From the NCBI GenBank assembly GCA_021786315.1, contig JAJYNN010000002.1, positions 100,160 through 164,159 on the forward strand: a stretch of 64,000 nt of DNA. Direction: 5' to 3'. Under the pieces are notes generated by a model that worked only from the letters and a program-made list of their open reading frames with translations, was not told the DNA's origin and made no database searches. The DNA comes from a bacterium (GTDB lineage Bacteria > Patescibacteriota > Microgenomatia > Daviesbacterales > UBA10151). A program made the translations under genes and the position numbers. How positions within the stretch are numbered: the stretch's first letter is position 1; every line of letters starts with the position of its first letter. This document shows, piece after piece, positions 7,764 through 42,895 of the stretch.

Positions 7764-8876
7764 ATGGTTTTAAAAAATCTCACGCTGACTAATTTCCGTA
7801 ATCTTGCCAAGGTGAATTTAGAGTTTTCTCCGGTGACGGTTCTCTTGGGTAAAAATGCCCAGGGCAAGTCCAATATTTTAGAAGGGGCCTATTTTCTGGC
7901 CACCACTAAGTCGCCCCGGGCGGAAAGGGACTCCCAGCTGATTAAACAGGGGGAAGAATTTGCCAGAATCGAAGGTAGCGTGTCAGAGTGTCAGAGTGTC
8001 GGAGCGTCAGAAAATTCTGACATGCAGACACCCCGAAACGCCGATATTCTGAAATTAGAAATTGCTATGCAAAGAAGAGAGGGGATGGAGGGGGTAGAAA
8101 AAAGGGTTAAGGTAAACGGGGTGGCAAAAAGGGTGACGGATTATTTAGGGAATTTAGTGGCGGTCCATTTTGCCCCGGAGGATTTGAATCTGGTTACCGG
8201 ATCGCCGGCTTTGCGGCGCTGGCATGTGGATTTAACCTTGGCCCAGGTTGACCGCCGGTATAAAAACGCCCTGACCCAGTACCATCAAGCCTTGGTTTCC
8301 CGAAACCGGATCTTAAAAAATATCAAGGAAGGGACAGCCAAACTTAATGAACTGGATTACTGGACTAACCTCATAGTTGAATCAGGTGAGGTGGTCAGCG
8401 AGAAACGAAGATCGTTTTTTAAGAGCCTTAATGAGGAAGCGATAACTTTAAATAATTTGGGCGATTTGAGGTTTACCTACGAAGAAAGTGAAATTTCTGC
8501 CCAACGAATCAGGGAATATTTGAGCCGGGAAGTGGCCGCAGCTACGAGTTTAATTGGCCCCCACCGGGATGACTTTATATTTAAACAATCAGGACACGAT
8601 TTGGCCTATTTTGGATCCCGGGGCCAGCAGCGGATTGCGGTTTTAGCCTTAAAACTCTCGGAACTGAAATTTATGCAGACAATTACCGGGATCAAACCGC
8701 TGCTGATTTTGGATGATGTTTTTTCCGAACTGGATGAAGCGGCCCGGGATTTTGTGGCTGAGGTTATCTCAGACCAGCAGGTGATCCTTTCTGCTGTGGA
8801 GAAGGAACATATTCCGGAGAAGCTAAAAGAGGGAGCCAAAATAATCCGGGTGGAGAAGGGGAAAATTATCTCTTAA
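7764..8876 (+). CDS. recF: DNA replication/repair protein RecF (with in-frame repeat insertion)
   Basis: N-terminal Walker A LGKNAQGKSNILEGAYFLATTKSPR. C-terminal LILDDVFSELD (Walker B / D-loop). Confidence 0.85.
   Translation: MVLKNLTLTNFRNLAKVNLEFSPVTVLLGKNAQGKSNILEGAYFLATTKSPRAERDSQLIKQGEEFARIEGSVSECQSVGASENSDMQTPRNADILKLEIAMQRREGMEGVEKRVKVNGVAKRVTDYLGNLVAVHFAPEDLNLVTGSPALRRWHVDLTLAQVDRRYKNALTQYHQALVSRNRILKNIKEGTAKLNELDYWTNLIVESGEVVSEKRRSFFKSLNEEAITLNNLGDLRFTYEESEISAQRIREYLSREVAAATSLIGPHRDDFIFKQSGHDLAYFGSRGQQRIAVLALKLSELKFMQTITGIKPLLILDDVFSELDEAARDFVAEVISDQQVILSAVEKEHIPEKLKEGAKIIRVEKGKIIS
7979..8052. repeat. GC-rich palindromic repeat (core GAGTGTCRG), copy inside recF in frame
   Basis: gtgtcagagtgtcagagtgtcggagcgtcagaaaattctgacatgcagacaccccgaaacgccgatattctga. 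Related copies lie at 38101-38190 and 41947-41988. Confidence 0.7.
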
Positions 8877-9144
8877 CCTTAAAGCGGGAGGCCATCCGGG
8901 AGAGTTGGTAGGTGATAAGGACAGCGAAAGAGGTAATAATTACGGCATAAATTAACCGGGATAAAAGGCCCGATCCGGGAATTCTTGGTTCAACGAATTG
9001 GTTAACGAAATCCTGGATAGCCTGGTTCCAGGCTAGAGCAGCCACTAACCCAAACCCTGAAGTGGCTAGGGTTAGCATCTGGGTAATTAGCTCCTGATGG
9101 AAGGACTTCTCCTTTTCCTTTTGAGTCTGACTTTTCTTGACCAT
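8866..9144 (-). CDS. hypothetical small membrane protein
   Basis: Two hydrophobic helices. The start is chosen at the internal Met (MVKKSQ) to avoid overlap with the downstream gene; the longer ORF would extend to 9279. Confidence 0.4.
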   Translation of the reverse strand: MVKKSQTQKEKEKSFHQELITQMLTLATSGFGLVAALAWNQAIQDFVNQFVEPRIPGSGLLSRLIYAVIITSFAVLITYQLSRMASRFKVKR

Positions 9145-9211
9145 ATGTGAGTTTATTATATCAGAAAGATAACTGCTTGAATTTTGCGGGAAATATGCGA
9201 GAATTAAAGGG

Positions 9212-9928
9212 ATGAAAAAGCCAGCGGCCTTTGCTTTCCTTGACCGTTTACCCTCGCTTTGGCTACCAATTACGCTCATTGTAGTTTATATCCTGGTGGC
9301 TTACCTGACCCGGGATATACTGCCTTCTTCCGAAGAAATAGCCACCAACTTTGCCCGGCTCTTTGCCCGTTATGGGTATGAGATTGTTTTAGTGGGGGCG
9401 TTTTTGGAAGGGGCGTTAATTATTGATATGTTTGTCCCCGGAGGATCAATTGTTTTAGTGGGGGCATACTTTTCCAGTATCGGGGTAATTTCCTATCCGA
9501 TCTTTTTATTATCTTCGGTAACAGGATTTGCAGCCGGATTTTTCCTGGATTTTTTGGTTGGTTACTACGGATGGTCAGATGTTTTGGACAGGGTAGGGTT
9601 GGGAAAACAACTATCCTTGGCCAGGGAAAAGGTCAAAAAACACGAAGGGAAAGCCTTTATCTTAGGTTATATCCACCCCGATTCTTCAACTATTGTGGCG
9701 GCTGCCGCCGGGGCAATAAAGATGGATATCGGACGTTTTGCTTTATATAATGTTTTAGCGACTTTTATCTGGGTGTCTGTTTGGACCGGTTTGGTTTACC
9801 TTTTTGGACCGGTAATCCAGAAGGCTTTTGAAGGCAAAATTGCCTATATTGCAGTTATTCTCTTAGTGATAGCAGCAATTTTGGGGTGGTTTGGGCTAAA
9901 AAAGGTTCAAGATAAGGAGAAGAAGTAA
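9212..9928 (+). CDS. DedA/VTT-family membrane protein (putative)
   Basis: Polytopic protein with Gly-rich VPGGSIVLVGAYF and a YGYEIVLVGAFLEG segment, typical of the DedA family. Confidence 0.5.
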   Translation: MKKPAAFAFLDRLPSLWLPITLIVVYILVAYLTRDILPSSEEIATNFARLFARYGYEIVLVGAFLEGALIIDMFVPGGSIVLVGAYFSSIGVISYPIFLLSSVTGFAAGFFLDFLVGYYGWSDVLDRVGLGKQLSLAREKVKKHEGKAFILGYIHPDSSTIVAAAAGAIKMDIGRFALYNVLATFIWVSVWTGLVYLFGPVIQKAFEGKIAYIAVILLVIAAILGWFGLKKVQDKEKK

Positions 9929-9931
9929 GGT

Positions 9932-11008
9932 ATGTTTGTTCCAAGATACACAATTACCAACCGCATCCTAAAAAATATCGGGGTGATCGATGCTTCCCGG
10001 GAAGTAATTTTGAATTCCCCATTAATTCCGGCTTGGGAGGCTAAATTTAAAAAAGAGGCTTTGGAGCGAAGTGTCCACCATGGAACGCATTTGGAGGGGA
10101 ACAGGTTATCTTTTGAAGAGGCCCAGGAGGTTTTAGACGGGCGGGAAGTTTTAGCCCGGGAACGGGATATTCAGGAAGTCATTAACTACCGCAATGTTTT
10201 AAAGTTTTTGGATGAGCTGGCAGCCCAAATCCGGGCTGATGGCCGGTATACCTTAACCGAGGAAATCCTATTGGGCGTCCACAACTTAGTGGTTGATAAG
10301 ATTGTAATTCCGGAAAAAGCCGGGCAATTCAGGACCCGCCAGGTGGTTTTGAAAAACAGTTTGACCGGGGAGATATCTTATACCCCGCCCCCTGCTGCCG
10401 AAGTTCCTTATTTAGTGGAGGATCTTTTAAATTGGATTAACGGCCCGGAATCTTTGGATGTCCATCCGGTCCTAAAGGCGGGGATAGTCCACTACGAGCT
10501 TTCCCGGATCCATCCTTTTGTGGAAGGTAACGGCCGGACAGCTAGAGCTGTAGCCACCTTACTGATGTTTTTGGATGGCTACGACATTAGAAAGCTATTT
10601 TCCTTGGAGGAATACTTTGACGCCAACCCCATTGATTACTATTCGACATTGCAGGCGGTTTCCAACCAGCTGGTTTTGGATTCCCATGAAAGGGATTTAA
10701 CTCCCTGGCTGGAATATTTTGTGGAAGGGGTAGCCATTGAATTAAACCGGGTCAAGGAAAGGGTGAGGCGGATTTCCATGGATGCCCGGGTCAAGGACAA
10801 ACTAGGGGAGCAGGTGACCTTAAATGAACGGCAGATGCTGATTATGGAGTACCTGCACCGCCACAAGCAGATGCAAAACAAGGATTTCCGGAAGGTTTTC
10901 CCCGATTATTCCGACGATACGGTTTTGCGGGAGCTGCGTTTCTTAAAGCAAAAAGGCCTGATTAAAAAGACCGGTGGTACTAAAATGGCGATGTACGTTT
11001 TAAAGTGA
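9932..11008 (+). CDS. Fic-family protein (AMPylase-type) with C-terminal wHTH
   Basis: Fic motif HPFVEGNGRTAR (HPFx[D/E]GNGR). Confidence 0.8.
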   Translation: MFVPRYTITNRILKNIGVIDASREVILNSPLIPAWEAKFKKEALERSVHHGTHLEGNRLSFEEAQEVLDGREVLARERDIQEVINYRNVLKFLDELAAQIRADGRYTLTEEILLGVHNLVVDKIVIPEKAGQFRTRQVVLKNSLTGEISYTPPPAAEVPYLVEDLLNWINGPESLDVHPVLKAGIVHYELSRIHPFVEGNGRTARAVATLLMFLDGYDIRKLFSLEEYFDANPIDYYSTLQAVSNQLVLDSHERDLTPWLEYFVEGVAIELNRVKERVRRISMDARVKDKLGEQVTLNERQMLIMEYLHRHKQMQNKDFRKVFPDYSDDTVLRELRFLKQKGLIKKTGGTKMAMYVLK

Positions 11009-11662: not shown

Positions 11663-11772
11663 TTTTATTTAACTCATAGCGACTATGCCTACTTTCAGCT
11701 TATAGATTGTTTACAGCATAATCAAGCAGGGAATAGTATATCATTTTAGGCCTATAATACACAAATTTTTAC

Positions 11773-11801
11773 TTGTCAAGGTGTTTGGGATAAGCTACAA
11801 T
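11773..11801 (+). promoter_or_regulatory. sigma70-like promoter TTGTCA-17-TACAAT; ligase appears leaderless
   Basis: -35 at 11773-11778 and -10 at 11796-11801. The GTG start at 11809 lies 7 nt after the -10. Confidence 0.45.
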
Positions 11802-11808
11802 CCAAAAT

Positions 11809-13542
11809 GTGACCTTTGCTCAATTTACCCAATTCTTAGAACAGTTAGAAAACACATCCTCCAGGCTGTCCTTGATTGATATTTTATCCCGGCTTTTCCG
11901 GGAGGTTTCCGTTTTAGAGATTACCCAGGTGGTGTATCTAATTCAGGGACGGGTGGCGCCGTTTTATGAACCGATTGAGTTAGGGATGAGTGAAAAGCTG
12001 GTTGCTGCCGCTATCGCCCGAGCGTATGGGGTCGACAAGGAAGAGGTCTTAAAAGAATACGGAAGAGTCGGGGATTTGGGGAAGGTGGCAGAAAAAATAG
12101 CCCAAGATTTAAGAATAAAGAATAAAGATTTAAGAGTAGATGAAGTTTTTAATATTTTACTGCAGATTGCCAAGACTTCAGGGGAGGGGACGGTGGATAG
12201 GAAAGTTACCCTTTTATCCGACCTGCTTAAAGGTATGGATCCAATTTCGGCAAAACATCTAGTGAGGATCCCCTTGGGAACCAGCAGGCTGGGGGTTGGA
12301 GATCCGACGGTTTTGGATGCCTTTGCCCAAAGCAAGTTGGGGGATAGGAAACAGAGAAAGGAGTTGGAGGAAGCCTACAATAGGACTTCGGATTTAGGGC
12401 TAATTGGAGAGACACTTTGGAATCAGGGTTTGGAAGGAGTCAAAAAGCTGGATGTGACTGTTGGCCGGCCAATCAGGCCTCAGCTTGCCGAACGGTTGCC
12501 GACTCCCGAGGCAATCATGGAAAAATTTGGCGGCCGGGCCCATGTCCAGTTTAAATTTGACGGGTTCCGCACCCAAATCCACAAAAACGGTGATGAAGTT
12601 CGGATTTTTTCCCGCAATTTGGAAGAAACCACGGCGATGCTGCCGGAGATTGTCGAGGGGGCCAAAAAACAAATTAAAGCCAAGACCGCAATATTAGATG
12701 CTGAAGCCTTAGCCTTTAATCCTACCTCGGATGAGTTTTTGCCTTTTCAGGAAACTGCTAAACGGAGAAGAAAATATCAGGTGGAGGAGATGGCCCAAAA
12801 GCTTCCCTTAAAGGCCTTTGTTTTTGATGTGATGTATGTGGACGGAAAATCCTATGTGGGGATGCCGCTTTCCGAAAGGATTAAGGAACTGCAAAAGGTT
12901 ATCTCCGGAGATGAGGTTTTAGTGGTCCAACCGGGGGAGTTTACCGATAAAACGGAAAGGATCCAGGAGCTTTTTGATGATGCCATTACCAAAGGTTTGG
13001 AAGGATTGGTGGTTAAAAAACCGGACACTGGGTATGAGGCGGGAGCAAGAAACTTTAACTGGGTCAAACTTAAAAGGCACTCCTCCGGTGAGCTCAAAGA
13101 TACTATTGATGTGGTTTTACTAGGTTACATCTTTGGCCGGGGGAAGCGGGCGGAGTTTGGGGCAGGGTCACTTTTGGTGGGTGTCTATGATAAAGAAAAA
13201 GACGAATTTGTAACGGTGACTAAAATCGGCACCGGGTTATCAGATGAGGAATGGCGGCAGATCCATGCCCGGGCAGATAAAATCCGGGTGGAGAAAAAAC
13301 CGGCGCGGGTCAATGCCATTGTGGAACCTTCGGTGTGGATTAAACCGGAGATTGTTTTGGAGGTTTTGGCTGATGAAATTACTAAAAGCCCGGTACATAC
13401 TGCAGGAAAGGTTGATGGCCAGCCGGGTTATGCCTTAAGATTCCCTAGGTTAGTTAATTTCCGGGATGACAAGAAGCCTGAAGATGCGACAACTGTCAAA
13501 GAGCTAGTCGAAATGTATTCCCAACAGTACAAAAAGGGATAA
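11809..13542 (+). CDS. lig: ATP-dependent DNA ligase (LigB / archaeal-eukaryotic type)
   Basis: Motif I KFDGFR (K-x-D-G-x-R). N-terminal DNA-binding-domain-like MTFAQFTQFLEQLENTSSRL. GTG start. Confidence 0.85.
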   Translation: MTFAQFTQFLEQLENTSSRLSLIDILSRLFREVSVLEITQVVYLIQGRVAPFYEPIELGMSEKLVAAAIARAYGVDKEEVLKEYGRVGDLGKVAEKIAQDLRIKNKDLRVDEVFNILLQIAKTSGEGTVDRKVTLLSDLLKGMDPISAKHLVRIPLGTSRLGVGDPTVLDAFAQSKLGDRKQRKELEEAYNRTSDLGLIGETLWNQGLEGVKKLDVTVGRPIRPQLAERLPTPEAIMEKFGGRAHVQFKFDGFRTQIHKNGDEVRIFSRNLEETTAMLPEIVEGAKKQIKAKTAILDAEALAFNPTSDEFLPFQETAKRRRKYQVEEMAQKLPLKAFVFDVMYVDGKSYVGMPLSERIKELQKVISGDEVLVVQPGEFTDKTERIQELFDDAITKGLEGLVVKKPDTGYEAGARNFNWVKLKRHSSGELKDTIDVVLLGYIFGRGKRAEFGAGSLLVGVYDKEKDEFVTVTKIGTGLSDEEWRQIHARADKIRVEKKPARVNAIVEPSVWIKPEIVLEVLADEITKSPVHTAGKVDGQPGYALRFPRLVNFRDDKKPEDATTVKELVEMYSQQYKKG

Positions 13543-16348: not shown

Positions 16349-17065
16349 ATGATTTCAGGTGTGGAGATTAAAACTCAAGAAATTGCTCAGGTAGCTGACT
16401 ATTTGAAAGATTTGGTAGCTAAACTAGAGCCGAAAATATGCGCTGGGGAATACGATTTGCTGGTGGTGGAAGGTGTAAGCGCCCGTATTCCGGGTACTGT
16501 TGTGCATAGATTAATTAACGAAAGCTATAGAGCGTTAGGCAGAGATGAGGTTGTCCCGATTTACTTAGGCAGGGATAAAAATGGGAATCACTCGCTAGGA
16601 GTAGATGAGTTAGAAGAGAAATATGGGAAAGCGCGGTTGCCGGAGAATGCTCATGCTTTAATCTTAAGCGAGATTATTTACCGCGGAGAAAAGATAGGCC
16701 GCTTAGGCCAATTTTTGGAAAGCAGGGGTGTAACTTACGATGCGGCGGTGGTACAAAGTGCTTACGATGAAGCAGAATACCGCCGGTGGGGCTACGTTTC
16801 GGAAAGAGCAGGTTACTACTCTGGATGGCAGTATCCAAGATCGACTGTTGACTGGGCTGATTTTAATGATCGGGCAGTTTACTCCCCCTTGTATAAGCAG
16901 GATTGGATGAATATAGGGGTATGGAATTTGCTAATGTCGGCTGGGGAAGAATCTGTTCTTGATCCACGAATTCTATCGGTGAAACAAGATCTCAAGACTC
17001 TTCAGGATTGGATTTGGAGAGGCCTTGAATTTCAGCGGGCAATCCACGCACTAGCTTCTGTTTAA
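16349..17065 (+). CDS. hypothetical protein
   Basis: 238-aa ORF with no recognised motif. Confidence 0.4.
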   Translation: MISGVEIKTQEIAQVADYLKDLVAKLEPKICAGEYDLLVVEGVSARIPGTVVHRLINESYRALGRDEVVPIYLGRDKNGNHSLGVDELEEKYGKARLPENAHALILSEIIYRGEKIGRLGQFLESRGVTYDAAVVQSAYDEAEYRRWGYVSERAGYYSGWQYPRSTVDWADFNDRAVYSPLYKQDWMNIGVWNLLMSAGEESVLDPRILSVKQDLKTLQDWIWRGLEFQRAIHALASV

Positions 17066-17088: not shown

Positions 17089-18123
17089 ATGGATTTTCAA
17101 GACTTCCTAAAACAATCCGCTCAAGAGATAAATCAAGAGATAGATAGATCATTTGAAAAGTGGAGTCAGGAAGTGGAGTCAGTAAGCCCAAAGCTCACGG
17201 CTTTGAACAAAGCTTTTATCCAGGCCAATGAAGGGGGAAAAAGGATCCGGGGAGCTTTAATTAAACTAGGCTATGAACTTGCCGGGGGGAGTCCCACCAT
17301 GGAAATCCTCAAACCGGCAGCCGCTTTTGAGATTTTTCAGACCGCTATCTTAGCTCATGACGACATAGTTGATCTATCACCACTTCGAAGAGGTAAGCCT
17401 ACTGTCTATAAAGTTCTTGGGGGTAATCATTATGGAATTTCGCAGGCATTAACTTTAGGCGATGCGGGGTTTTTCTTGGCGGTGCGGCTCATTGCCGAAA
17501 CCGACTTTCCCGATTCCCGGAAAAATAAAGCCTTAGCCTTTTTTGCCCAGGCGATGCTGGAGACAGCGCTGGGTCAGATGCTGGATATTGAGTTACCTTA
17601 CCAAAAAGAGACCAGAAAAGAGGTTGACGCCTTAACAATTTTCCGCCTTAAGACAGCCCGCTATACCATTGTTGGCCCATTAGCGCTTGGGGCGATCTTA
17701 GGGGGAGCGGGGAAGAAGTTTTTAGAAGACGTAGAAAAGTTTGGCGAGGCTTTAGGGATAGCTTTTCAGATTCAGGATGACACCTTGGGGGTGTTTGGAG
17801 ATGAAAAAACCATCGGTAAATCTGTTACCTCAGATATTGAAGAGGGGAAAAATACTTTGCTGATTATCTATGCTTTGGACCGGGCGACCAAGGAGCAAAA
17901 GGTAGTACTTGATAAATACTACGGTAAAGGAAAAATTGGGGGAAAAGAGCTGGAAAAAATTAAGCAGGTATTTGTAGACACAGGCGCTTTGGAATATTCC
18001 CGGAAAAAGGCGATGGAATTGGTGACTGAAGCACTTTTGGTGATAGAGGGAATGGATATCTCTCCTGAGTATAAAAAACTACTTACTCAAATGGCAGATT
18101 TTCTAGTCAGAAGAGACAAGTGA
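17089..18123 (+). CDS. polyprenyl diphosphate synthase (trans-IPPS, GGPP/FPP synthase family)
   Basis: First Asp-rich motif LAHDDIVD and second FQIQDDTLG. Confidence 0.8.
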   Translation: MDFQDFLKQSAQEINQEIDRSFEKWSQEVESVSPKLTALNKAFIQANEGGKRIRGALIKLGYELAGGSPTMEILKPAAAFEIFQTAILAHDDIVDLSPLRRGKPTVYKVLGGNHYGISQALTLGDAGFFLAVRLIAETDFPDSRKNKALAFFAQAMLETALGQMLDIELPYQKETRKEVDALTIFRLKTARYTIVGPLALGAILGGAGKKFLEDVEKFGEALGIAFQIQDDTLGVFGDEKTIGKSVTSDIEEGKNTLLIIYALDRATKEQKVVLDKYYGKGKIGGKELEKIKQVFVDTGALEYSRKKAMELVTEALLVIEGMDISPEYKKLLTQMADFLVRRDK

Positions 18124-19249: not shown

Positions 19250-21372
19250 GATTGAGATACTTGATAAACTTTGGTTTCCCCGGATTGGAAAATTACCTTG
19301 CCAAGTTCGGCGAACTTACTTTCCTGCAACCGCAGATATTTTTGTCTCTCCAGGGTGCCTATAAAAACGTAGGAAATATTGTATTTCTTAATTAACTCTT
19401 TGGTTAAGTTTAAATCCGGTGTTTCATATAAAGTTGTTACATCTTGTGACCTTCGGCCAGCTTCGTCATAAGAGCCCCGCCAGAGCCATTCATGGACCGG
19501 CCAGCCGATTACAGTTGGCAGTCCGGTATTGGAGGAAACCCGGGCAAAGTCAGTGTAGGAATCCCCCTGGCCCTCTAAAATTACCGGTTGGCCTTTGATA
19601 TTTTCCCGTAGCCACATAACTGCCTGATAATCAGTGGGGTAGAGGGTATAAAGGTAGTTTAAGCCGTTTAAGCCTTGATAATTTTCCAGGCCGCCGTAGT
19701 AGGAATTAACGCCGAAGATTGGGTAAATCCCGACTAAAAGGAAAAGCGGAATAAAGATTATATAGAATAGGATCTTTTTTAGTTCCATTATCCGGGTAAT
19801 CATATACCCGGAAATAAGGCCTAAGATAATGAAAGCCTGGTAACCAAGCTTAAAAACGGTGTTGGCCCGGTAGTGGGCAGGATAGATATCCTTAACGTAG
19901 AAAAACTCCGGGATCAGGATTAGGATAGTTGCCCCTAAAGCTAGGACTAAAACTAGATAATCAGAATTTACAATTTTAAATTTTAAATTTTCAAAGAATT
20001 TTTTAATTCTCAATTTTAAAACTAAGATCATAAAGCTAAAAATGACAAAGTAATAAAATCCCCAAAGAATCATTAACATCCACAGCGGGGATTTCATGCA
20101 GTGGTCAGGTTCAAAAAGAAACGGCCCAAGATGGCCTTTATCAACTAAGAACTGGGGAGCGCACAAGACTCCGATTCCCTGGCCAAAGGGGGCAAAAGCC
20201 AGCCAATAGGGTAGGGAAAAGATTACGGCCAGGAAGCTTAGAGGGATCATGACTTTAAATGTTTGCCAAAGTGATTTTTCTAAAGTATGGCCTTTTAAAG
20301 ATGAGAAGAAAAACAGTAATCCGGACACAAGAAGGTAGATCGGGCCGTCCAAAACGTTGGTCATCAAAGAGATCGATATCAGCAGTCCTAGAAGTAAAAT
20401 ATCCGTCAATCTAATCTTAGATTCAAAGAATATCTTAATGAGTAAGGCGATAGTCAAAAGGACAAAGGGGATATTTAAGACGTGGCCGTGCAAGTCAGCG
20501 ACAATAAATGAGTAGCTGGGGAATTCGTGGATGGTAAAAGGGATAAACCGGGTAGCGTTGGGGTACCAATAACCCTGGAGGTTAAAAGAGAAGGGTAACT
20601 GCCAGAAAGGAACCGGTTTATCGGGGGTGTAACTTTGGAAAAAGATATAAATGGTATGCAGGTTCCCTCCTAAAGTGACCAGGAAAGCGCTTAAAATGCC
20701 TGAAAGGTAGGAAAGTTTAGTAATTTGTGCTTTGAAACTGGAATAAAGGTTAAAACCAATGGAAAATGAGGCCGAAAGGCAGATGCCAAAAAGCGTGGCC
20801 AGAATTAAGTTATAGGAGATGCTGGGATCAAAGCCCGAGATTTTAGTCATGACCGCTCCAACAAGATGCCCGAAGTAATAATAATTAATAGAGAGAGGGG
20901 TCATCCAAAGGTCCCGGGGAGGGAAGTATCCGGTGCGGAGAATGGAATTGATGAAACCAAAGTCCATAAACTTTTCCAAGCCGTGGATGGAGGGTTCGTG
21001 GGCTCGGACAAAAGCCCAGAAGATCAACCCCCCTAAAAATAACCCTTCCTCAAGGGCATAAATCCTAAATTGCCCTAAAAGCGGGGGAAGTTTGAGCCGT
21101 TGTTTTTTTCCTCCCCAGATGATTGCCGAGTTAATCCCGATAAAAACCATCCAAATTAGAAACAACTCTAAGGTATTAAACGAAAAAATCCTTAAGCTTG
21201 AGAGAACCCAGGCGATGTAGCTTATTAACAAAACCCCGAGAATTTTCGATAAAGCATAGCCTTTGTCAAAAAAATTATGGAAGATTAAGCCGGTTAAAGG
21301 GAAAAATACGATACCGATTAAAAACCAAAGCAGCCACCACTGTAAAACATAGAAGACATCACCTAAATTCAT
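19246..21372 (-). CDS. large polytopic membrane protein (DUF2298-like, possible GT-C-type enzyme)
   Basis: 708 aa with more than 15 TM segments. It carries an in-frame AT-rich repeat copy (LKLRIKKFFENLKFKIVN). Confidence 0.5.
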   Translation of the reverse strand: MNLGDVFYVLQWWLLWFLIGIVFFPLTGLIFHNFFDKGYALSKILGVLLISYIAWVLSSLRIFSFNTLELFLIWMVFIGINSAIIWGGKKQRLKLPPLLGQFRIYALEEGLFLGGLIFWAFVRAHEPSIHGLEKFMDFGFINSILRTGYFPPRDLWMTPLSINYYYFGHLVGAVMTKISGFDPSISYNLILATLFGICLSASFSIGFNLYSSFKAQITKLSYLSGILSAFLVTLGGNLHTIYIFFQSYTPDKPVPFWQLPFSFNLQGYWYPNATRFIPFTIHEFPSYSFIVADLHGHVLNIPFVLLTIALLIKIFFESKIRLTDILLLGLLISISLMTNVLDGPIYLLVSGLLFFFSSLKGHTLEKSLWQTFKVMIPLSFLAVIFSLPYWLAFAPFGQGIGVLCAPQFLVDKGHLGPFLFEPDHCMKSPLWMLMILWGFYYFVIFSFMILVLKLRIKKFFENLKFKIVNSDYLVLVLALGATILILIPEFFYVKDIYPAHYRANTVFKLGYQAFIILGLISGYMITRIMELKKILFYIIFIPLFLLVGIYPIFGVNSYYGGLENYQGLNGLNYLYTLYPTDYQAVMWLRENIKGQPVILEGQGDSYTDFARVSSNTGLPTVIGWPVHEWLWRGSYDEAGRRSQDVTTLYETPDLNLTKELIKKYNISYVFIGTLERQKYLRLQESKFAELGKVIFQSGETKVYQVSQS
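19961..20030. repeat. AT-rich palindromic repeat family copy (in frame within membrane-protein gene)
   Basis: tcagaatttacaattttaaattttaaattttcaaagaattttttaattctcaattttaaaac. Confidence 0.55.
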
Positions 21373-29754: not shown

Positions 29755-31644
29755 CTACTGGACTTCACTCCAGATTGTCAGGTCCCTGGCAAAAATATCC
29801 TTCAGAATAACCAAATATTTAGGCATGTAATTAATCTGTTCAGCCGGATCAGTATTATGTCCGTTGGAGCGGACAAACTGGGGAGGTTGGTTGGGGTTTA
29901 AAGAAATGACACTTCCGTTAATGGTTAATTGGGGAGCATTGGTACCTGCTGGGACGCAGTTGATGGAAATTAAATTACCGGTAGAGGCGCTACAGAAAGG
30001 TGTAGTAGTGCCGTTACCATAACTAATGAAGAACCCTTCGACTGGTTTAGCGCTCCCGCCCATATTTTTATCAATATAAACGGTGCCTTTGACAACAAAA
30101 ACCAGCCCTGAGGCTCCGCCGCCGTAGACGAATTTATTGCTGGGAGTATTAAGGAGTAAATTGCCATCCACAAAAATGACACCTGTTTTGGTATCGGTTG
30201 CCTGTAACTCGGAATTAACTGTTAGGTTTCCGGTGATATGGTAAAGCTGGTTGCTGCTACTCAAATCAAAAATCCGGTGAGCGTTGTCATAAGATCTATC
30301 TCCGGAGAGGGTGTTGCCTGCCGGGGGGGCGGGTTTGGCTTGGGAATAATAGAGCGAGAGAACCTCGTCGTAGCTGGGTATAGAAAATTGGGGGACGGAA
30401 GCGGGGTTGCCGATAAGGCATCTGGTTGAGGAGAAGTTGTTTTTCTTTGTTGAATCAACTAAAGATAAAAACCCGTTTCCGACTTGAATAGGGGTTGACC
30501 CGCTTGGACAGCTTGGGTCTTGAGGAGCTTGAAAAGGCACAAATGGAGTGGGAGTAGGGGTAGGGGTAGGGGTGGGAGTGGGAGTAGGGGTAGGGGTAGC
30601 ACAAACAGGAATAGAAAAAGAGTTGGAATTACTGTGGGTTCCGTTATAAAGCCTTACATAATAAGTGGCATTGGGTTGGAGGGAAGGGGAACTGCTAAAG
30701 CCGGTAGGGGCTGGGGTACTGCTGCTGCCTGAGACATTTTTATTCCAATAAGAGCTAAAGCTGCTGTTGCTGCTGATATCTGCCCAGCTAACGGGAACTC
30801 CCGGATTAGTCCAGGAGATAGTGACTTGACTCCCGGAGTAGGGTCCGGTGACACAGCTGACGTTTGTTCTAATTGATGGGGTTGGAGGAGCAATCAAAGA
30901 ATAAGAAAAGTTGTAACTGTTGTCTACGGACATATCATTACTGGGGGTAAGGCCACATCCGTCAGGGCTGGCATATTTGCCAGCAATCTGGCATTCGTAA
31001 CTTCTGTTTGGTCCGCCATAGCCGCTTAAAGAGGGGCTCCTCAGGCAGAAACCTAAACCGGCGTTAATGTTTGGGTAGCTGAAGTACCCGCTGGAGTTTG
31101 TTGTGGCCAGGCCAATATTGCACTGAGGCGGTGGCCAAGGGACCCCTGCCCTGAGTTCCGCCCCCTGGTTGATTACTACTCCCCCGATACCATTGCCGGT
31201 GACGGAGTCGGTAACTCTACCGGTTAAAGTTAGGCGGCAACCACTAATGGTTTTTGGTGATCCGCTGATTAGGGCATTATTACCGCTACCAATGTTAATA
31301 CCGTAAGCGTAGATATTGTGGGAGTTACCGTCCTTTAACCAGTCGGGAGTGGTAAAAGTGAAGCCGTGGGCACCGGTGCTTCCACAAACACCGGCATTCA
31401 CCAAATCCTGGCGGAAGATATTGGCTGTGGTTGCGCCTACCCAGGTATTGTTATCTGTGTAAAAGTGGACATCAATAGATTGGTTGTTATTGTCACCATC
31501 GCATGCCCAGCCGGCAAAGTTGGAACAATTGGCAGCGTCTAAATAACCATAAGGATCCGCAGCTAATGCTGGGGTAGGGGAAACGATAAAAAAAGCAGAA
31601 GCTAATATAAAAAATAGAAGTGGCAGAAAAAGGTCAATTTTCAT
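29755..31644 (-). CDS. secreted protein with (PT)n linker
   Basis: Signal peptide MKIDLFLPLLFFILASAFFIVSPTPALA. TPTPTPTPTPTPTPTPTP linker. Gly/Asn-rich beta-type C-terminal region. Confidence 0.55.
   Translation of the reverse strand: MKIDLFLPLLFFILASAFFIVSPTPALAADPYGYLDAANCSNFAGWACDGDNNNQSIDVHFYTDNNTWVGATTANIFRQDLVNAGVCGSTGAHGFTFTTPDWLKDGNSHNIYAYGINIGSGNNALISGSPKTISGCRLTLTGRVTDSVTGNGIGGVVINQGAELRAGVPWPPPQCNIGLATTNSSGYFSYPNINAGLGFCLRSPSLSGYGGPNRSYECQIAGKYASPDGCGLTPSNDMSVDNSYNFSYSLIAPPTPSIRTNVSCVTGPYSGSQVTISWTNPGVPVSWADISSNSSFSSYWNKNVSGSSSTPAPTGFSSSPSLQPNATYYVRLYNGTHSNSNSFSIPVCATPTPTPTPTPTPTPTPTPFVPFQAPQDPSCPSGSTPIQVGNGFLSLVDSTKKNNFSSTRCLIGNPASVPQFSIPSYDEVLSLYYSQAKPAPPAGNTLSGDRSYDNAHRIFDLSSSNQLYHITGNLTVNSELQATDTKTGVIFVDGNLLLNTPSNKFVYGGGASGLVFVVKGTVYIDKNMGGSAKPVEGFFISYGNGTTTPFCSASTGNLISINCVPAGTNAPQLTINGSVISLNPNQPPQFVRSNGHNTDPAEQINYMPKYLVILKDIFARDLTIWSEVQ
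30540..30600. repeat. simple repeat (ggggtaggggtaggggtgggagt...) encoding the PT linker
   Basis: A 6-nt periodic direct repeat is visible in the sequence. Confidence 0.7.
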
Positions 31645-31719: not shown

Positions 31720-32625
31720 TTATTGATTTGAATGGACATCTCCGCCTCTAACCTTTAAATAGGCCGGCATAGCTGTTGGGGTTGGGGTGGGTGTCGGGGT
31801 TGGAGTTGGGGTGGGTGTCAGAGTTGGGGTGGGTGTCGGGGTTGGAGTTGGGGTGGGAGCAATGATTTGGTAGGTTGTGGATTTGGAACACAGAGGTGAG
31901 CAATTACTGAAGCTGCCCTGGCAGACTTTCCAGGTATGAGTCCAGGTGTAAGTGCCGGTGATAGACGCCGTACAGGTGGTATTATTCCAAGATCCGCTGC
32001 AATTACTGACTCCCGGACGGGTATCGCCAATCCAGGTAGATGCATCACCGGTGATATTGAAGGTCATATTGCGCCCGGGAGTTTGCGTGTTGGGAGAAAC
32101 GGAGAGGGAAACCTGATTTGTGTTGCAACTAATGCTGGTGGGTTGGGGAGGAGGGCAATCTCCCGAATACCAGACAATAAACCCTTCGGGGATACCACAC
32201 GTCCAGGGACTTTGCCAGTTGCCGCCGTTGCGGCAATTATGGTCAAAGGAGTCAATTTGGTAAGTTCTGCCGCAGGTAGCTCCGGCAAAACTTTGTGAGG
32301 TGCTCCAACTGGATTCATGTTCAGTACAGTTGGTTTGTTTGCCGTTGCACCAATAGAGAACGGTGCTGTTGCCGGTTCCGGAGCGGCTCCAGCAGGTTCC
32401 GCTGCCGAGATTACAGGGAGCGGCACAACCCCCGTTGGCGTTATAGACACCGTTGTCGAAACCGTTGATGTTCCCGTCACCACCACTGCCGTCGTTGGTA
32501 AAACCACAAATTTTAGTGTAGTAGCCGCTACCGTAATTGGTGGTAGCGTAAACTACGCCGATTGAGGCCATCAGTATTAATACTGCCACAGGAATAGAAG
32601 CTAATTTAAAATACTTTTTTAACAT
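31720..32625 (-). CDS. secreted Cys-rich protein with C-terminal (PT)n tail
   Basis: Signal peptide MLKKYFKLASIPVAVLILMASIGVVYA. More than 20 Cys. PTPTPTPTPTPTLTPTPTPTPTPTPTPT. Confidence 0.5.
   Translation of the reverse strand: MLKKYFKLASIPVAVLILMASIGVVYATTNYGSGYYTKICGFTNDGSGGDGNINGFDNGVYNANGGCAAPCNLGSGTCWSRSGTGNSTVLYWCNGKQTNCTEHESSWSTSQSFAGATCGRTYQIDSFDHNCRNGGNWQSPWTCGIPEGFIVWYSGDCPPPQPTSISCNTNQVSLSVSPNTQTPGRNMTFNITGDASTWIGDTRPGVSNCSGSWNNTTCTASITGTYTWTHTWKVCQGSFSNCSPLCSKSTTYQIIAPTPTPTPTPTPTLTPTPTPTPTPTPTPTAMPAYLKVRGGDVHSNQ
31775..31862. repeat. simple repeat encoding the (PT)n tail
   Basis: ggggttggggtgggtgtcggggttggagttggggtgggtgtc... Confidence 0.7.
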
Positions 32626-34883: not shown

Positions 34884-36341
<1,458 letters not shown>

Positions 36342-37382: not shown

Positions 37383-37457
37383 GGGCGCATGGCTCAGTGG
37401 TAGAGCGCGTCACTGATAATGACGAGGTCCATGGTTCGATCCCATGTGCGCCCACCA
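37383..37457 (+). tRNA. tRNA-Ile (anticodon GAT), CCA encoded
   Basis: GGGCGCA/TGCGCCC acceptor, D-arm GCTCAGTGGTAGAGC, anticodon loop CTGATAA, T-loop TTCGATC, then ACCA. Confidence 0.85.
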
Positions 37458-37699
37458 GAGAGGATTGGTCAGGGGCAGCCCCTGATAGCTAGACGAATAA
37501 AACAAGCTGCTGGAAAATGGCTACAGTAAAAAGCAGGCTAAAGAAAGACTTAAGCTTTCTCCTGGGAGTAGAGTTTAGCCAGCTGTGAGTGCAACTCTCA
37601 CTCCTCTCACATACTTTGATCCATTCTTCTGACCTTGTTCTTACTCTATTTTTGTTGTTCTCTTAAGCATAAAAGTTAATATTTGCTCAATAATCAATT

Positions 37700-37957
37700 A
37701 TGAATATCTTAGCTTGGATTGTATTTGGACTAATAGTTGGAGCAATTGCTCACTACCTCTATCCACGACCTTCTCAAGGCGGGTTGCTCGGAACCATTCT
37801 TCTTGGTATTTTGGGAGCATTGCTGGGAGGTTTTATCGGGGACCTGCTTTTCGGGGTTGCTGTTACCGGATTTAACCTTTCTTCATTTATAGTGGCGGTT
37901 ATTGGATCCTTGGTGTTACTGTTTGTTAGCAGGGCTTTCTTAAGTAGTGCGCGTTGA
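37700..37957 (+). CDS. GlsB/YeaQ/YmgE-family stress-response membrane protein
   Basis: MNILAWIVFGLIVGAIAHYL...GGLLGTILLGILGALLGGFIGDLLFG is a typical Gly-zipper transglycosylase-associated protein. Confidence 0.7.
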   Translation: MNILAWIVFGLIVGAIAHYLYPRPSQGGLLGTILLGILGALLGGFIGDLLFGVAVTGFNLSSFIVAVIGSLVLLFVSRAFLSSAR

Positions 37958-38100
37958 CTCTTTAAGAGACCTCTACTTGCAAAAGTAGAATCAGGATTGG
38001 GGGTAGGAGTGAAAAACTTTGCCGGGGGCTTGATAATTGAGGGCTCACACTAAGTTGTAATATTGTCCCAAAATTCCTCGGCCCTACCCCTCAACTGGTC

Positions 38101-38190
38101 GGAGTATCGGCATATCAGAGTGTCGGTGCACCAGAATATCAAATTTTCAGATACTCTGACACTCCGAAACACTGACATTCTGATCCGGAG
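38101..38190. repeat. GC-rich palindromic repeat (core GAGTGTCRG), intergenic hairpin copy
   Basis: Left arm cagagtgtcgg and right arm ctctgacactccg are inverted repeats. It shares ccgaaac...ga[c/t]attctga with the recF copy. Confidence 0.7.
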
Positions 38191-38325
38191 CAGGGGATTA
38201 TGGCGGTATTAAAATCCAAACTTCATAGATATCTAGATCAATTCCTTCCTGAAAACGGTTTGGTGAAACAATTCATTTATCTTCTAACTTCAGCACCGGT
38301 AGAATAATTAACCCAGATTTAAGAA

Positions 38326-38393
38326 TTAAGATTTAGGATTTAAGAGGGAATTTTGTGACTCTTAAATCTAGATTCCTAAATCTTAAATCCTTA
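38326..38393. repeat. AT-rich palindromic repeat family, intergenic full hairpin copy
   Basis: atttaagaattaagatttaggatttaagag...ctcttaaatctagattcctaaatcttaaatcc are near-perfect inverted arms. Confidence 0.75.
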
Positions 38394-38611
38394 CGCAACC
38401 CTTACACCGCCAGCCTTGAATCCTTACATTGTGCGACTTGACACGCACCACTTCTTCTGCTAATATTCTCACCGCAACCGTAAAGCTGCAGGTCCGCCAA
38501 TAGGGCGGATTCTTATATTTCCAACGTTTGCATTCTTGGGGTTTTTGCGGGTCTTTTTCTGAAATATCAGAGATCCTGTAACTTCTCTCCGGCAAAAGCC
38601 GGGCAGAACTT

Positions 38612-39913
38612 ATGGATAAACTGCCTTATATTAACCTATCATTCTTAAAAAAGAACGACAAAGTAAAACTATTTCTAGATTCTGCTACTACTTTCTTCTC
38701 GAAATTTTTCAAGAGGGGGGTACCGGTTTTTACCAGTTTAATGGTGATGATGGCTATTACTATTAACGGAATAGGAACACCTTTAATACAAGTTTCGCCT
38801 CTGGTCTCTCCTTTACAGCCCTTAGTGGACCAAAAGAGCCAAAAAGAGGTTTTCGGCTTTGCGCCTTATTGGACCTTTAATAAGTTGGACAAGGTAGATT
38901 TTGATACCCTGACAACTATTGCCTACTTTGGGGTTCCTGTACTCTCGGATGGCACTTTGGATAAAACCGACCAGGGATATATTACTTTTGAGTCCCACCA
39001 GGCCACCCAGCTTTTCCAAAAGGCCCATCAGCACGGAACCAGGGTAGTTTTAACCTTGACCCAGATGAATAACTGGCCGATTCAGGCTATTTTGGATGAC
39101 CCTAATGCTACCCAAAATGTGATAAATCAGGGAGTTGATGCTGTCCAGTCCAGAGGGATTGACGGAATCAATGTTGATTTTGAGTATCAAGGTGACCCTG
39201 GACAAGACTATCGGGATAAATTTACCCATTTTATAGACCAGTTGACCCAGGCAATGCATAAAGCCAACCCTAATGCCAAAGTGACCGTTTCAGTTTATGC
39301 GGCATCTGTCAAAGATCCTAAAATTTATGATGTTGGGGCTTTGGCTAAAGTTTCTGACGGGATCTTTATGATGGCTTATGATTTTGCCAACTCCTCTTCG
39401 GATGTGGCGATGCCGACAGCCCCGCTTTTTGGAGCTTCCGATGGAACTTATTGGTATGACGTATCCACCGCTGTCAACGACTTTTTGCGGGTGATGCCGG
39501 CCAATAAGCTGATTTTGGGGGTACCTTGGTATGGGTATAACTATTCAGTAGGACAACCTCAGGTTAAAGCTTTAACTGGGTGGGGTGGAGGAGTCTCCCA
39601 GCCTTACTCGGTAGCCAAAGATAGCATCCAGCCTGATGCCACCGGTTGGGATAACGAAGGCAAGGTAGGCTGGGAAGCCTACCAAACTTGGGGCGGCTGG
39701 AGGATGATCTTTGTTGAAGATGCCAAATCTTTAGGGTTAAAGTATGACTTTGCCAAGAGCAAAAACCTTGAGGGTATTGGGATTTGGGCTTTGGGATTTG
39801 ATGACGGAAAACCGGAGATGTGGAGTACCTTAAAAAGTAAGTTTACCGGTTTAGTGAAAGACACTGCAGTTTTGGCCAAAGCTATTAAGGAGGTGCCGGA
39901 AAACGACATATGA
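38612..39913 (+). CDS. glycoside hydrolase family 18 (chitinase-like), secreted/membrane-anchored
   Basis: N-terminal TM helix. DGINVDFEY matches the GH18 DxxDxDxE catalytic motif. Confidence 0.65.
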   Translation: MDKLPYINLSFLKKNDKVKLFLDSATTFFSKFFKRGVPVFTSLMVMMAITINGIGTPLIQVSPLVSPLQPLVDQKSQKEVFGFAPYWTFNKLDKVDFDTLTTIAYFGVPVLSDGTLDKTDQGYITFESHQATQLFQKAHQHGTRVVLTLTQMNNWPIQAILDDPNATQNVINQGVDAVQSRGIDGINVDFEYQGDPGQDYRDKFTHFIDQLTQAMHKANPNAKVTVSVYAASVKDPKIYDVGALAKVSDGIFMMAYDFANSSSDVAMPTAPLFGASDGTYWYDVSTAVNDFLRVMPANKLILGVPWYGYNYSVGQPQVKALTGWGGGVSQPYSVAKDSIQPDATGWDNEGKVGWEAYQTWGGWRMIFVEDAKSLGLKYDFAKSKNLEGIGIWALGFDDGKPEMWSTLKSKFTGLVKDTAVLAKAIKEVPENDI

Positions 39914-41046: not shown

Positions 41047-41810
41047 ATAGGCTGAGGCAGGGGTTGATTTTCATAACCGCTGTAGTCTTTTATTTGGTCT
41101 AACCAGCTGTGCCGGGGGAAGAAGTGCTCCGGGTGAGCTAAATATTCATAAAAAGCATAAGGGCTGCCTTCGTGTGCCGGATAGGGGCTTTGAAATTGAG
41201 AGAAGGCAAAAAGATGGAACCGCTTGCCGGCACCTTCCAGATTAACCTGTAAATTATCCAGCAGACCAGTAAGAACTTTAGGGGACCGGGCATAATAGCT
41301 GACCCGGTGGGTCAAAGACCGGTATTTATTGCGTAAACGGTTAACTAAAGGTTGATTAATCATAATGTTTCCATGGATGGTGGCCAGAACCAACCCTTCC
41401 GGAGTTAGTGTTCGTTCAACTTCCCGGAAAAACTTCTTGGTCTGTTCATCATCCATAAAATCCAAAGTGTGATCCAAAACAATTAAATCCAATGAGCTGT
41501 CGGAAAAAGGGAGCTCCTCCAAACGTCCCTGAACTTTATGATGGGAGGAAAAAGTACCCATTGGTTCGTCATTCATATCCATAAGAATGAGATTATTTTG
41601 GGGATTAGGGTGAAGGTAACGGCAAAAATCAGAAAAACCGGAGGCGGTTCCTGAGAAGGCATGAAACCCCCCCAAAAGAGCATTGATTTTCTCTTTACCT
41701 AAAAAGCCCGGTTGCTGTCTGGTTAAGATATCAACTGCCCACGTATAGGCGAAGCCCTGTTCCCCAAGGCTCACCGGTTGAACAAAACGGTAATATTCCT
41801 GCCATCCCAT
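41043..41810 (-). CDS. class I SAM-dependent methyltransferase (putative)
   Basis: Central ...LDLIVLDHTLDFMDDEQ...PEGLVLATIHG resembles MTase motifs II-IV. Weak call. Confidence 0.4.
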   Translation of the reverse strand: MGWQEYYRFVQPVSLGEQGFAYTWAVDILTRQQPGFLGKEKINALLGGFHAFSGTASGFSDFCRYLHPNPQNNLILMDMNDEPMGTFSSHHKVQGRLEELPFSDSSLDLIVLDHTLDFMDDEQTKKFFREVERTLTPEGLVLATIHGNIMINQPLVNRLRNKYRSLTHRVSYYARSPKVLTGLLDNLQVNLEGAGKRFHLFAFSQFQSPYPAHEGSPYAFYEYLAHPEHFFPRHSWLDQIKDYSGYENQPLPQPI

Positions 41811-41875
41811 AATGGCTGGAATTATACATCATTGAGGGCTTTTAGTCCCGCGGAAGTTTATAGTACTATGAATCT

Positions 41876-42895
41876 ATGCAAGTGGTTTCTGCCCAGCTTG
41901 TTTCCGGCAAAAAAGTTTTAATCAGACTTGATATTGACGTTCCGATCGGAGTGTCGGAGCATCAGAGTGTCAGTGGGTCAGAAAAAGGCAAGTTGGTGGT
42001 TTTGGATGATTTTAGGTTGAAGGCTGGATTAGGTACTTTAAAGTTGTGTTTAGAAAATGCTTCGGAGGTTATAGTGATGGGACATCTTGGCCGGCCGAAA
42101 GGGGAGGACAAAAAACTTTCCGTAGCTCCGATTTATACCTGGCTGGAGAACCAAGGTTTTGCCGGTGACCTGGAAAGCGGAAAGCTGCAGCTTTTGGAAA
42201 ACCTCAGATTTGAGGAAGGGGAAGATAGCTGTGACCTCAATTATGCCAAAGAGTTGGCTGCATTAGGTGAGATATATATAAATGAAGCTTTCGCTGCCCA
42301 CCATCCGGCGGCCTCAACTACAGTTTTGCCGACACTTTTACCCCATGCGGCAGGATTACGCTTTGCTGAGGAAGTGAAGACTTTATCTGAAATCCAGGAC
42401 AACCCCCAAAGGCCGCTCATCGCTGTTGTCGGAGGCGCCAAGATAGAAGACAAATTACCGGCAGTAAGAGTTTTATCTAAAATTGCTGATGTGGTGTTAG
42501 TTGGAGGCAAGATATCCCAGGAGCTGGAAAAAGACCCGGGGATTTTAAAAGAATTAGGGGAGGGGGTAGTCTTGGGCGAGCTGAATAAAGATAAAACGGA
42601 TCTCACCCCTGAAACGATCCAGGTTTGGAAAGAGATTATCCTGCACCATTCAAAATCGGTAATCTGGAACGGCCCTTTGGGGAAAATAGAGGATCCTCAA
42701 AATAACCAAAGCAAGTATCTGGCAGAAGCTATTATCGAATCGGGAGCAAAAAGTGTTGTTGGCGGCGGAGATACTGTATCAGCGCTTGATAAATGGAATC
42801 TTTTGGATAAATTCAATTTTGTTTCAACTGGCGGAGGAGCAATGCTGGAATTTTTAACAGAGGGAACTTTACCTGCAATTGAAGCTCTTTCTTAA
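41876..42895 (+). CDS. pgk: phosphoglycerate kinase (short form, with in-frame repeat insertion near N-terminus)
   Basis: GHLGRPKG, VVGGGDTVSALDKW and STGGGAMLEFLTEG motifs. Confidence 0.85.
   Translation: MQVVSAQLVSGKKVLIRLDIDVPIGVSEHQSVSGSEKGKLVVLDDFRLKAGLGTLKLCLENASEVIVMGHLGRPKGEDKKLSVAPIYTWLENQGFAGDLESGKLQLLENLRFEEGEDSCDLNYAKELAALGEIYINEAFAAHHPAASTTVLPTLLPHAAGLRFAEEVKTLSEIQDNPQRPLIAVVGGAKIEDKLPAVRVLSKIADVVLVGGKISQELEKDPGILKELGEGVVLGELNKDKTDLTPETIQVWKEIILHHSKSVIWNGPLGKIEDPQNNQSKYLAEAIIESGAKSVVGGGDTVSALDKWNLLDKFNFVSTGGGAMLEFLTEGTLPAIEALS
41947..41988. repeat. GC-rich repeat (core GAGTGTCRG) copy inside pgk, in frame
   Basis: cggagtgtcggagcatcagagtgtcagtgggtcagaaaaa encodes GVSEHQSVSGSEK, which is absent from canonical PGK N-termini. 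Confidence 0.65.

Follow-up and report, generated by a model that had tools for sequence, protein, structure and literature searches.

A 64-kb stretch of a patescibacterial genome (GCA_021786315.1, contig JAJYNN010000002.1, positions 100,160 to 164,159; hereafter the window) carries three copies of a short GC-rich repeat built from degenerate octamers: copy A within recF, copy B in an intergenic spacer, and copy C within pgk (Table 1). On balance, we favor the interpretation that the three copies are members of a single family of dispersed repeats, which is old and whose elements are small and hairpin-forming. Repeats with a comparable effect on proteins are the Rickettsia palindromic elements (RPEs), small palindromic repeats that occur between genes and in frame inside genes, where they are read through as peptide (PMC10969869). 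The octamer family is RPE-like, in-frame, and hairpin-forming.

The core motif GAGTGTCRG, on which a first-pass annotation had based this GC-rich family, occurs six times in the window versus 0.44 times expected, a count reached in none of 100 shuffles, and all six cores fall within the three loci that had been named; the observation itself is real. Its unit is the degenerate octamer TCRGAGTG, of which each left arm contains five, colinear in A, B, and C. Within the window, TC[AG]G at an exact 8-nt phase over at least three units is confined to these loci, with forward arrays at 7983-8014, 38099-38130, and 41946-41985 and reverse arrays at 8029-8052 and 38152-38183. Tandem Repeats Finder (TRF) likewise assigned a period of 8 (4 copies) to 7980-8011 and 41949-41982. 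The order of the octamers in the left arm is fixed (TCGGAGTG TCGGAGCA TCAGAGTG TCRGNGNN YCAGAAAA), and the left arms of the three copies align in register at 68-79% identity (family D16). An nhmmer profile of the left arm detects copy C with an E value of 2e-10 and also recovers the right arms on the opposite strand (E 1e-4 and 0.02), and a covariance model scores copies A and B at 94 and 85.8 bits, respectively. Copy C ends exactly at the close of the left arm and lacks a right arm; such a half copy is undetectable by the full-length covariance model. No further member was found in the window or in 92 kb of DNA from relatives with the unfiltered covariance model (R1) and the nhmmer arm profiles, and the weak matches obtained (E 0.008-0.9) coincide with other hairpin inserts. 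A protein search with concatenated translations of the elements retrieved only (VSECQSVR)n open reading frames (ORFs) on short contigs and recovered none of the proteins of this genome, even RecF and PGK being missed. A tandem at 17161-17186, previously regarded as a possible degenerate relative, is no member of the family: it has a period of 13 and 2.2 copies (17158-17186 in TRF) without TCRG phasing, and it matches neither the covariance model nor the nhmmer profiles, the nearest covariance match (17284-17314, E 9.8) lying about 100 nt downstream. A CRISPR array was ruled out as an explanation of the octamers, which are contiguous and without spacers.

Table 1. Coordinates of the octamer repeat, its host genes, and other repeats and RNA genes in the window, and of heptamer arrays in locus L041 of a relative.
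Feature	Position	Strand	Description
Copy A, full hairpin element	7975-8052	+	Within recF; RecF residues ~71-97 (SVSECQSVGASENSDMQTPRNADIL)
Copy A, left arm	7975-8014	+	Octamers GTAGCGTG TCAGAGTG TCAGAGTG TCGGAGCG TCAGAAAA
Copy A, right arm	8015-8052	+	Inverse-complement array, end = CCGAAACGCCGATATTCTGA
Copy B, full hairpin element	38099-38190	+	In the 655-nt spacer between the Transgly_assoc gene (37700-37957) and the GH18 gene (38612-39913)
Copy B, left arm	38099-38138
Copy B, loop	~38139-38151
Copy B, right arm	38152-38183		Plus closing stem
Copy C, left arm only	41946-41985	+	Within pgk; PGK residues ~24-37 (IGVSEHQSVSGSEK); octamers TCGGAGTG TCGGAGCA TCAGAGTG TCAGTGGG TCAGAAAA
recF	7764-8876	+	Host of copy A; 370 aa; Pfam SMC_N, E 2e-20
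pgk	41876-42895	+	Host of copy C; 339 aa (relatives typically 322 aa); Pfam PGK, E 3e-71
AT-rich family, PolA	649-685		C-terminus
AT-rich family, Fpg	4838-4872 with 4915-4952
AT-rich family, DNA ligase	12093-12157
AT-rich family, PMT-like gene	26502-26541
AT-rich family, further sites	38316-38389; 47372-47560; 52267-52305; 54242-54281; 54646-54681
16S rRNA	34884-36338
tRNA-Ile	37383-37457
tRNA-Ala	47304-47377
23S rRNA	47576-51374
5S rRNA	52377-52493
L041 (GCA_028715175.1), TCAG-phased heptamer arrays	823-850; 6167-6194; 10082-10109; 13203-13272; 16392-16423; 19998-20025; 20222-20256		Seven arrays in 21 kb

In copies A and B, the octamer array is followed by its inverse complement as a second arm, and the two arms form an imperfect hairpin of 24 pairs. 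Both copies have the right-arm block CCGAAAC[G/A]C[C/T]GA[T/C]ATTCTGA in common, as already noticed in the first-pass annotation, with 17 of 20 positions identical. RNA folding gave z scores of -3.2 for A, -3.0 for B, and -4.4 for the minus strand of B, and no fold for copy C. The hairpin ascribed earlier to copy B exists in an imperfect form, but the arms quoted for it are perfectly complementary only over 7 bp (GAGTGTC/GACACTC), which are part of a longer imperfect stem. A consensus structure of A, B, and a homologous element from another species (L044, see below) comprises 24 pairs, in which 89% of the cells are paired versus 25-43% if the partner is slid. Four of these pairs are changed on both sides, a number that 9 of 500 shuffles reach, and the three sequences thereby suggest covariation within the hairpin. 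Copy B, which is untranslated, retains the hairpin. Rfam contains no family for copy B and returned only generic hairpin matches below threshold. A scan for promoters and terminators was uninformative, copy B being without a T-tract, and the copies show no consistent placement relative to promoters, terminators, or start codons.

Copies A and C lie in frame in their host genes, and the extra residues attributed to them earlier could be confirmed. In RecF, copy A accounts for about 25 extra residues between RIEGSV and KLEI, which are missing from insert-free RecF orthologues and from the solved RecF 5Z67. Copy C lengthens PGK, between DIDVP and DDFRL, by 13 residues, which are missing from T. 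maritima PGK 1VPE and from most PGKs of Candidatus Daviesbacteria. The length of about 13 residues had been given correctly for the PGK insert, but its placement just before the GHLGRPKG motif was wrong, because the insert (residues 24-37) is located about 30 residues upstream. AlphaFold models of RecF and PGK have a mean predicted local distance difference test score (pLDDT) of 88.6 and 89.4, respectively. Values below 50 are found solely at RecF residues 77-92 and PGK residues 30-35, and in both models the insert is flanked by two beta-strands and represents the tip of a beta-hairpin. The models thus predict that the genic inserts are unstructured loops at sites compatible with the fold. The forward octamer array is free of stop codons in all three frames and the reverse array contains TGA; the two TGAs left in copy A are confined to a single frame that is not used. 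The same frame of the element is read in A, in C, and in the orthologous insert of L044. From frame and stop codons we infer that the inserts are translated within RecF and PGK. Pfam revealed neither an intein nor an endonuclease nor any additional domain in the two proteins; an intein or intron was ruled out by this result together with the small size of the inserts and their being always in frame.

The homologues of RecF and PGK belong to Candidatus Daviesbacteria (Microgenomates, candidate phyla radiation (CPR)), where the homologues of the former are annotated as RecF, and they assign the window to this group. The RecF of L044 is only 62% identical, yet its gene carries the same octamer element at the corresponding site, and the element aligns in order with A and B through to the right arm. 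Copy A and the L044 insert share 58 of 87 nucleotides (67%), compared to 66% identity over the whole gene and 34% at 73 four-fold degenerate sites. Because an element occupies the same site in L044 and its identity is far above that of the four-fold sites, the recF copy is, as judged from this comparison, ancient and constrained at the DNA level: it was inherited vertically, it predates the split from the species of L044, and something constrains the DNA of the insert. The first-pass annotation had held that a homologous peptide at the same site in a distant RecF would speak against a repeat family. Such a peptide does exist in L044, but on the evidence of the aligned sequences it indicates the great age of the recF copy and not the absence of a family. 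Copy C and the recF element of L044 share TCAGTGGGTCAGAAA (15 nt), and the PGKs of other species have heptamers at this position. Without copying between loci, this common stretch would be hard to explain. At the level of strains, the identity between L004 and L005 amounts to 99.9% over 7 kb (6 kb on the upstream side of the RecF loop and 1.1 kb on its downstream side), and their RecF inserts are wholly unlike, with 57 nt in L004 (6043-6099) versus 141 nt in L005 (9767-9907). The differences extend 15-25 nt into the conserved codons beside the insert, and the exchange looks like a short-patch replacement.

Both loops are hot-spots of insertion and deletion across the lineage. Many RecF and PGK proteins of Daviesbacteria are empty there. 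In the one likely same-genome pair, recognized by neighboring accession numbers (P0011 RecF, P0129 PGK), the RecF site is filled and the PGK site is empty. The DNA of the RecF loop consists of a GATGGAA-type heptamer hairpin in L005, of (GTCGTCA)4 with a CCGAAAA-type right arm in L006, and of a GTCGTCA-type hairpin in L043, and the PGK loop contains (GTCATCA)4 in L041 and GTCGTCA units in L042. Units elsewhere in Daviesbacteria are mostly 7 nt long, such as TCAGTCG, TCAGTCA, and TCAGCTA. The window has six arrays of period 7 and one of period 8, none of which arise in block shuffles of its sequence, and 146 kb of Daviesbacteria DNA contain 17 arrays of period 7 or 8. Many such arrays have an inverse-complement partner nearby, and their hosts include PolA, Fpg, Pth, and a GT4 glycosyltransferase. 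Of the seven arrays of L041, those within genes are in frame (one each in SpoU and PGK, two in RadA), and the others fall in gaps presumed to contain the 16S and 23S rRNA genes. Peptides of the L041 arrays (SSVVSRQSSDKDK…SLIAD…) reappear in other species, within the inserts of RecF and PGK. With sub-repeat hairpins in the RecF and PGK loops of many Daviesbacteria and this density of arrays in L041, the RPE-like habit postulated in the first-pass annotation is, as far as the compared sequences indicate, real at the level of the lineage. We also lean toward regarding the octamer family as a local variant of a superfamily found throughout Candidatus Daviesbacteria.

Further repeats were noticed in the same proteins and in L041. 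The peptide LPTxLxSAGPHxGAxR, described as GC-rich, is found in the RecF loop of P0045 and at a different PGK site in P0151 and P0158, and an 'SFDTAQDK' peptide is present at a third PGK site (P0133, P0208, P0227). The array at 13203-13272 of L041, in the presumed 23S region without called genes, is a clamped hairpin of TCAG heptamers resembling the one in the 23S rRNA gene of the window (see below).

The window also contains an AT-rich heptamer family (Table 1), which the first-pass annotation had considered independent of the octamer repeat. Its architecture is that of the octamer family, in that arrays of T[C/A]AGAAT-type or AGATTTA-type heptamers precede their own inverse complement, and the octamer arrays terminate in TCAGAAT-like units. 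Like related hairpins of relatives, the AT-rich family extends into rRNA gene regions. Based on this common architecture and on the ends of the octamer arrays, the two families are probably related rather than independent.

Octamer-like arrays are not restricted to Daviesbacteria. A scan of a genome collection with TCRGAGTGTCRGNGNNYCAGAA gave 34 matches, which is roughly the level expected by chance (estimate ~35); about 14 of these are real (GTGTCAGA)n arrays from other phyla and fall outside the family of A, B, and C. A scan of metagenome contigs, which like the genome collection do not include the source genome, with TCAGNNTNTCRGNGNNNCAGAAN{15,40}CCGAAAC gave 12 matches and no family member, 10 of them being chance matches in GC-rich coding DNA and two being unrelated TCAG-type arrays. 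The (GTGTCAGA)n arrays were found in Omnitrophota, Nitrospirota, Lentisphaeria, and Verrucomicrobiota (L009, L012, L015, L019, L030, L031, and L033 in the Omnitrophota metagenome-assembled genome JAHJBY01; L022, L023, L024, L026, L027, and L038), usually with an inverse-complement partner. In JAHJBY01, (GTGTCAGA)n heads a conserved dispersed repeat of ~140 nt with nine matches, and several of these repeats adjoin apparent start codons and ribosome-binding sites of putative divergent genes, as read from the flanking sequence. ORFs encoding (VSECQSVR)n are common on short metagenome contigs.

How might such elements arise and spread? If the three copies are one dispersed family, the sub-repeats of their arms would have arisen by slipped-strand expansion and contraction. 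Copying among recF, pgk, and the spacer would then be achieved by a DNA-level process acting on the hairpin or the array. Candidates are a single-strand hairpin transposition of the type known for repetitive extragenic palindromes (REPs) and REP-associated tyrosine transposases (RAYTs), short-patch templated repair, or gene conversion. The inserts would be translated within RecF and PGK and looped out, and copies would be retained only where a floppy loop is tolerated. The same process, or a sequence-specific reader, might hold the copies near a genome-specific consensus.

Several observations weigh against this reading. The window contains just three copies, and mobility is deduced solely from the sequence that the three loci share. 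Copies A and B are 65% identical, which makes A no closer to B than to the orthologous element of L044, and recent transposition is therefore not indicated. The major ORFs of the window include no recognizable transposase, integrase, or reverse transcriptase, and the elements have no target-site duplications and no termini apart from the palindrome itself. The covariation is based on three sequences, the same ones that gave the structure, and the case for translation of the inserts is one of frame and stop codons. Finally, many of the arrays seen in relatives are built from a unit of their own, the outcome expected of local slippage.

Local slippage would offer an alternative explanation, in which the arrays are simple-sequence repeats of 7-8 nt that polymerase slippage forms and reshapes independently at each locus, in hypervariable surface loops, without any copying between loci. 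Arrays of period 7 dominate in the window and in relatives, many units are seen once, and the RecF loop, the PGK loop, and the C-terminal region of PolA carry different units in different species. Heptamers were moreover the most abundant class in the report of Mrazek (2007), as summarized in PMC4679880, and slippage was proposed for them there. However, slippage would not give A, B, and C the same succession of five non-identical octamers, nor would it account for the non-repetitive right arm common to A, B, and L044 or for the 15-nt match of copy C to the recF element of another species. Slippage alone yields no inverse-complement second arm, and an identity of 67% versus 34% at neutral sites is unexpected for a free-running process. 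This explanation thus appears unlikely. The conservation well above neutral sites would fit with a selected motif, in which the hairpin or the phased TCAG array works at the level of RNA or DNA, for example as an array bound by an RNA-binding protein, as a site of processing, or as an element of pausing or stability, and the genic copies are kept for this function. In line with such a role, the untranslated copy B keeps its hairpin with compensatory changes, the same octamer array recurs in several phyla, and related TAACTGA arrays (reverse complement TCAGTTA) have been proposed to bind S1, Csp, or CsrA-type proteins (PMC4679880). Yet the inserts are dispensable, since they are missing from many closely related RecF and PGK proteins, and strains that are nearly identical carry completely different ones. 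Copy C has lost its hairpin, Rfam offers no matching family, and the copies are not placed consistently with respect to promoters, terminators, or start codons. A selected motif is therefore also rather unlikely, if somewhat less so.

The inserts could also be intervening sequences that are removed from the mRNA, like the rRNA insertions of CPR bacteria, or from the protein, leaving normal mature enzymes. The 23S rRNA gene of the window is about 870 nt over-long with a LAGLIDADG ORF and a hairpin insert, and the organism accordingly has intervening sequences in rRNA. However, all genic inserts examined in the window and in relatives are multiples of three and free of stop codons in the host frame (39, 57, 66-78, 141 nt, and others). 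As a removed sequence would carry no such constraint, this possibility is barely credible; in addition, their size is far below that of an intein or of a group I or II intron, and no such Pfam domain is present in RecF or PGK. A bolder extension of the dispersed-family reading would be that a trans-acting, sequence-specific machinery writes, copies, or corrects TCAG-phased arrays of 7-8 nt and their inverse complements in Daviesbacteria and perhaps in other phyla. It would act at fixed permissive sites, among them loops of essential enzymes and rRNA, and could take the form of a single-strand transposase that is specific for hairpins and whose specificity co-evolves, or of an enzyme that adds repeats from a template. 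If such a machinery existed, all copies in a genome would be expected to have a genome-specific unit (the octamer here, heptamers in relatives), near-identical strains could swap whole inserts, and the TAACTGA-type arrays of Beggiatoaceae and Cyanobacteria and the (GTGTCAGA)n arrays of other phyla would be explained as well. We consider this idea speculative and decidedly unlikely.

Other features of the window deserve mention. The 23S rRNA gene (3.8 kb) exceeds the Rfam model by ~870 nt and contains the LAGLIDADG endonuclease ORF at 49755-50366. In the same gene, positions 48826-48982 form a hairpin of 157 nt with AT-rich heptamer arms of 63 nt and GC-rich clamps. The rRNA operon is split, with ~10 kb of coding sequence (GH18, peptidase, pgk, gap, and others) between 16S/tRNA-Ile and tRNA-Ala/23S/5S, and copies B and C are located inside this interruption. 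Between the 5S gene and the gene of the S1 protein, a 36-nt unit (TATAAGCAGAGCTTGAAATCTTTGCTTCTCAAAAAT) is repeated 3.1 times with 100% identity (52632-52742); a CRISPR array was ruled out here, too, as spacers are lacking. An ORF of 3021 aa on the minus strand (54681-63746) contains at least 18 copies of a conserved motif of ~59 nt that are 200-770 nt apart. G-rich tandems of 6, 12, and 24 nt (GTAGGG, GTTGGGGTGGGT) at 30541-30606 and 31762-31881, in two minus-strand ORFs without Pfam match, probably encode Pro/Thr-rich linkers.

CPR genomes have a size of about 1 Mb and little spare DNA, yet in this lineage hairpin repeats reside in essential enzymes (RecF, PGK, PolA, Fpg, RadA) and in rRNA genes. 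If the family were confirmed genome-wide, the 'selfish DNA in protein-coding genes' known from Rickettsia would have a second, independent example in a very different lineage with reduced genomes. The family is unusual in its slippage-prone sub-repeats, in the re-use of protein loops across species, and in a conservation far above neutral. Many of the differences in length within CPR protein families, and many of their low-complexity peptides, are explained by the inserts, which can also serve to tell strains apart and which mark enzyme loops that tolerate 13-45 extra residues. The inserts may also be linked to the long-unexplained heptamer arrays of other phyla. Full-text literature searches, whose coverage is incomplete, found no description of such elements in CPR bacteria.

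Among known systems, REPs and their inverted doublets (REPINs), which are mobilized by RAYTs related to the Y1 transposases of IS200/IS605, resemble the octamer family in being short imperfect palindromes that form hairpins as inverted doublets. Their families are likewise genome-specific, conserved well beyond neutral, and without coding capacity. REPINs are extragenic, however, whereas two of the three copies described here are in genes, REPs have no tandem sub-repeats, and no Y1 transposase or RAYT is encoded in the window. [quoted passage not shown] Unlike MITEs, the octamer elements have no distinct terminal inverted repeats around a core. No direct repeat that would indicate a target-site duplication borders A (…GAAGGTAGC / AATTAGAAA…), B (…CAACTGG / CAGGGGATT…), or C (…GTTCCGA / AGGCAAGTT…), with the boundaries of the elements being uncertain, and no parent insertion sequence or transposase was seen in the major ORFs of the window. 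Small hairpins that sit in protein-coding genes, with both arms coding, are described for the compact mitochondrial genomes of Nematomorpha (PMC6649704), and repetitive hairpin-forming elements for intergenic regions of sponge mitochondria (PMC2800124). These elements are organellar, and the abstracts of the two accounts mention no tandem sub-repeats.

The sub-repeats themselves find their best counterpart in the directly repeated TAACTGA heptamers known from Beggiatoaceae, Cyanobacteria, and Bacteroidetes (MacGregor, 2015; PMC4679880). Both are tandem repeats of a 7-8-nt unit with a CTGA/TCAG core, in which one orientation is stopped in all frames and the other is open. Occasional copies in ORFs give repeat peptides (LSVISYQ there, VSECQSVR here), and the distribution across phyla is patchy. 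The octamer repeat also has the properties of long simple-sequence repeats, with a tandem unit in the range of 5-11 nt and a length beyond chance. However, most of the TAACTGA arrays consist of direct repeats placed immediately upstream of a start codon, and one inverted case is reported, whereas here an array with an 8-nt unit forms a hairpin with its inverse complement, and copies are found well inside essential enzymes. The unit TCRGAGTG (reverse complement CACTCYGA) shares only the CTGA core with TAACTGA, and no copy is located at a start codon. With the RPEs of Rickettsia, the octamer family has in common that its elements are intergenic as well as in frame in unrelated housekeeping genes, that they occupy fold-compatible sites, and that they encode no transposase. 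It is palindromic in A and B but not in C, it is found at several loci both genic and intergenic, it is in frame and free of stop codons, and the protein models predict compatibility with the fold. In contrast to RPEs, the elements are ~40-90 nt long instead of ~100-150 nt, consist of tandem sub-repeats of 7-8 nt, and were seen here in three copies, and a given protein loop is re-used from species to species by elements with different units. The host belongs to the Patescibacteria/CPR, and the likeness is one of functional class, no membership in RPE-1 to RPE-10 being claimed. By analogy, RPEs are the closest counterpart of the octamer family with respect to its effect on proteins, and the TAACTGA arrays are the closest with respect to its sub-repeat.

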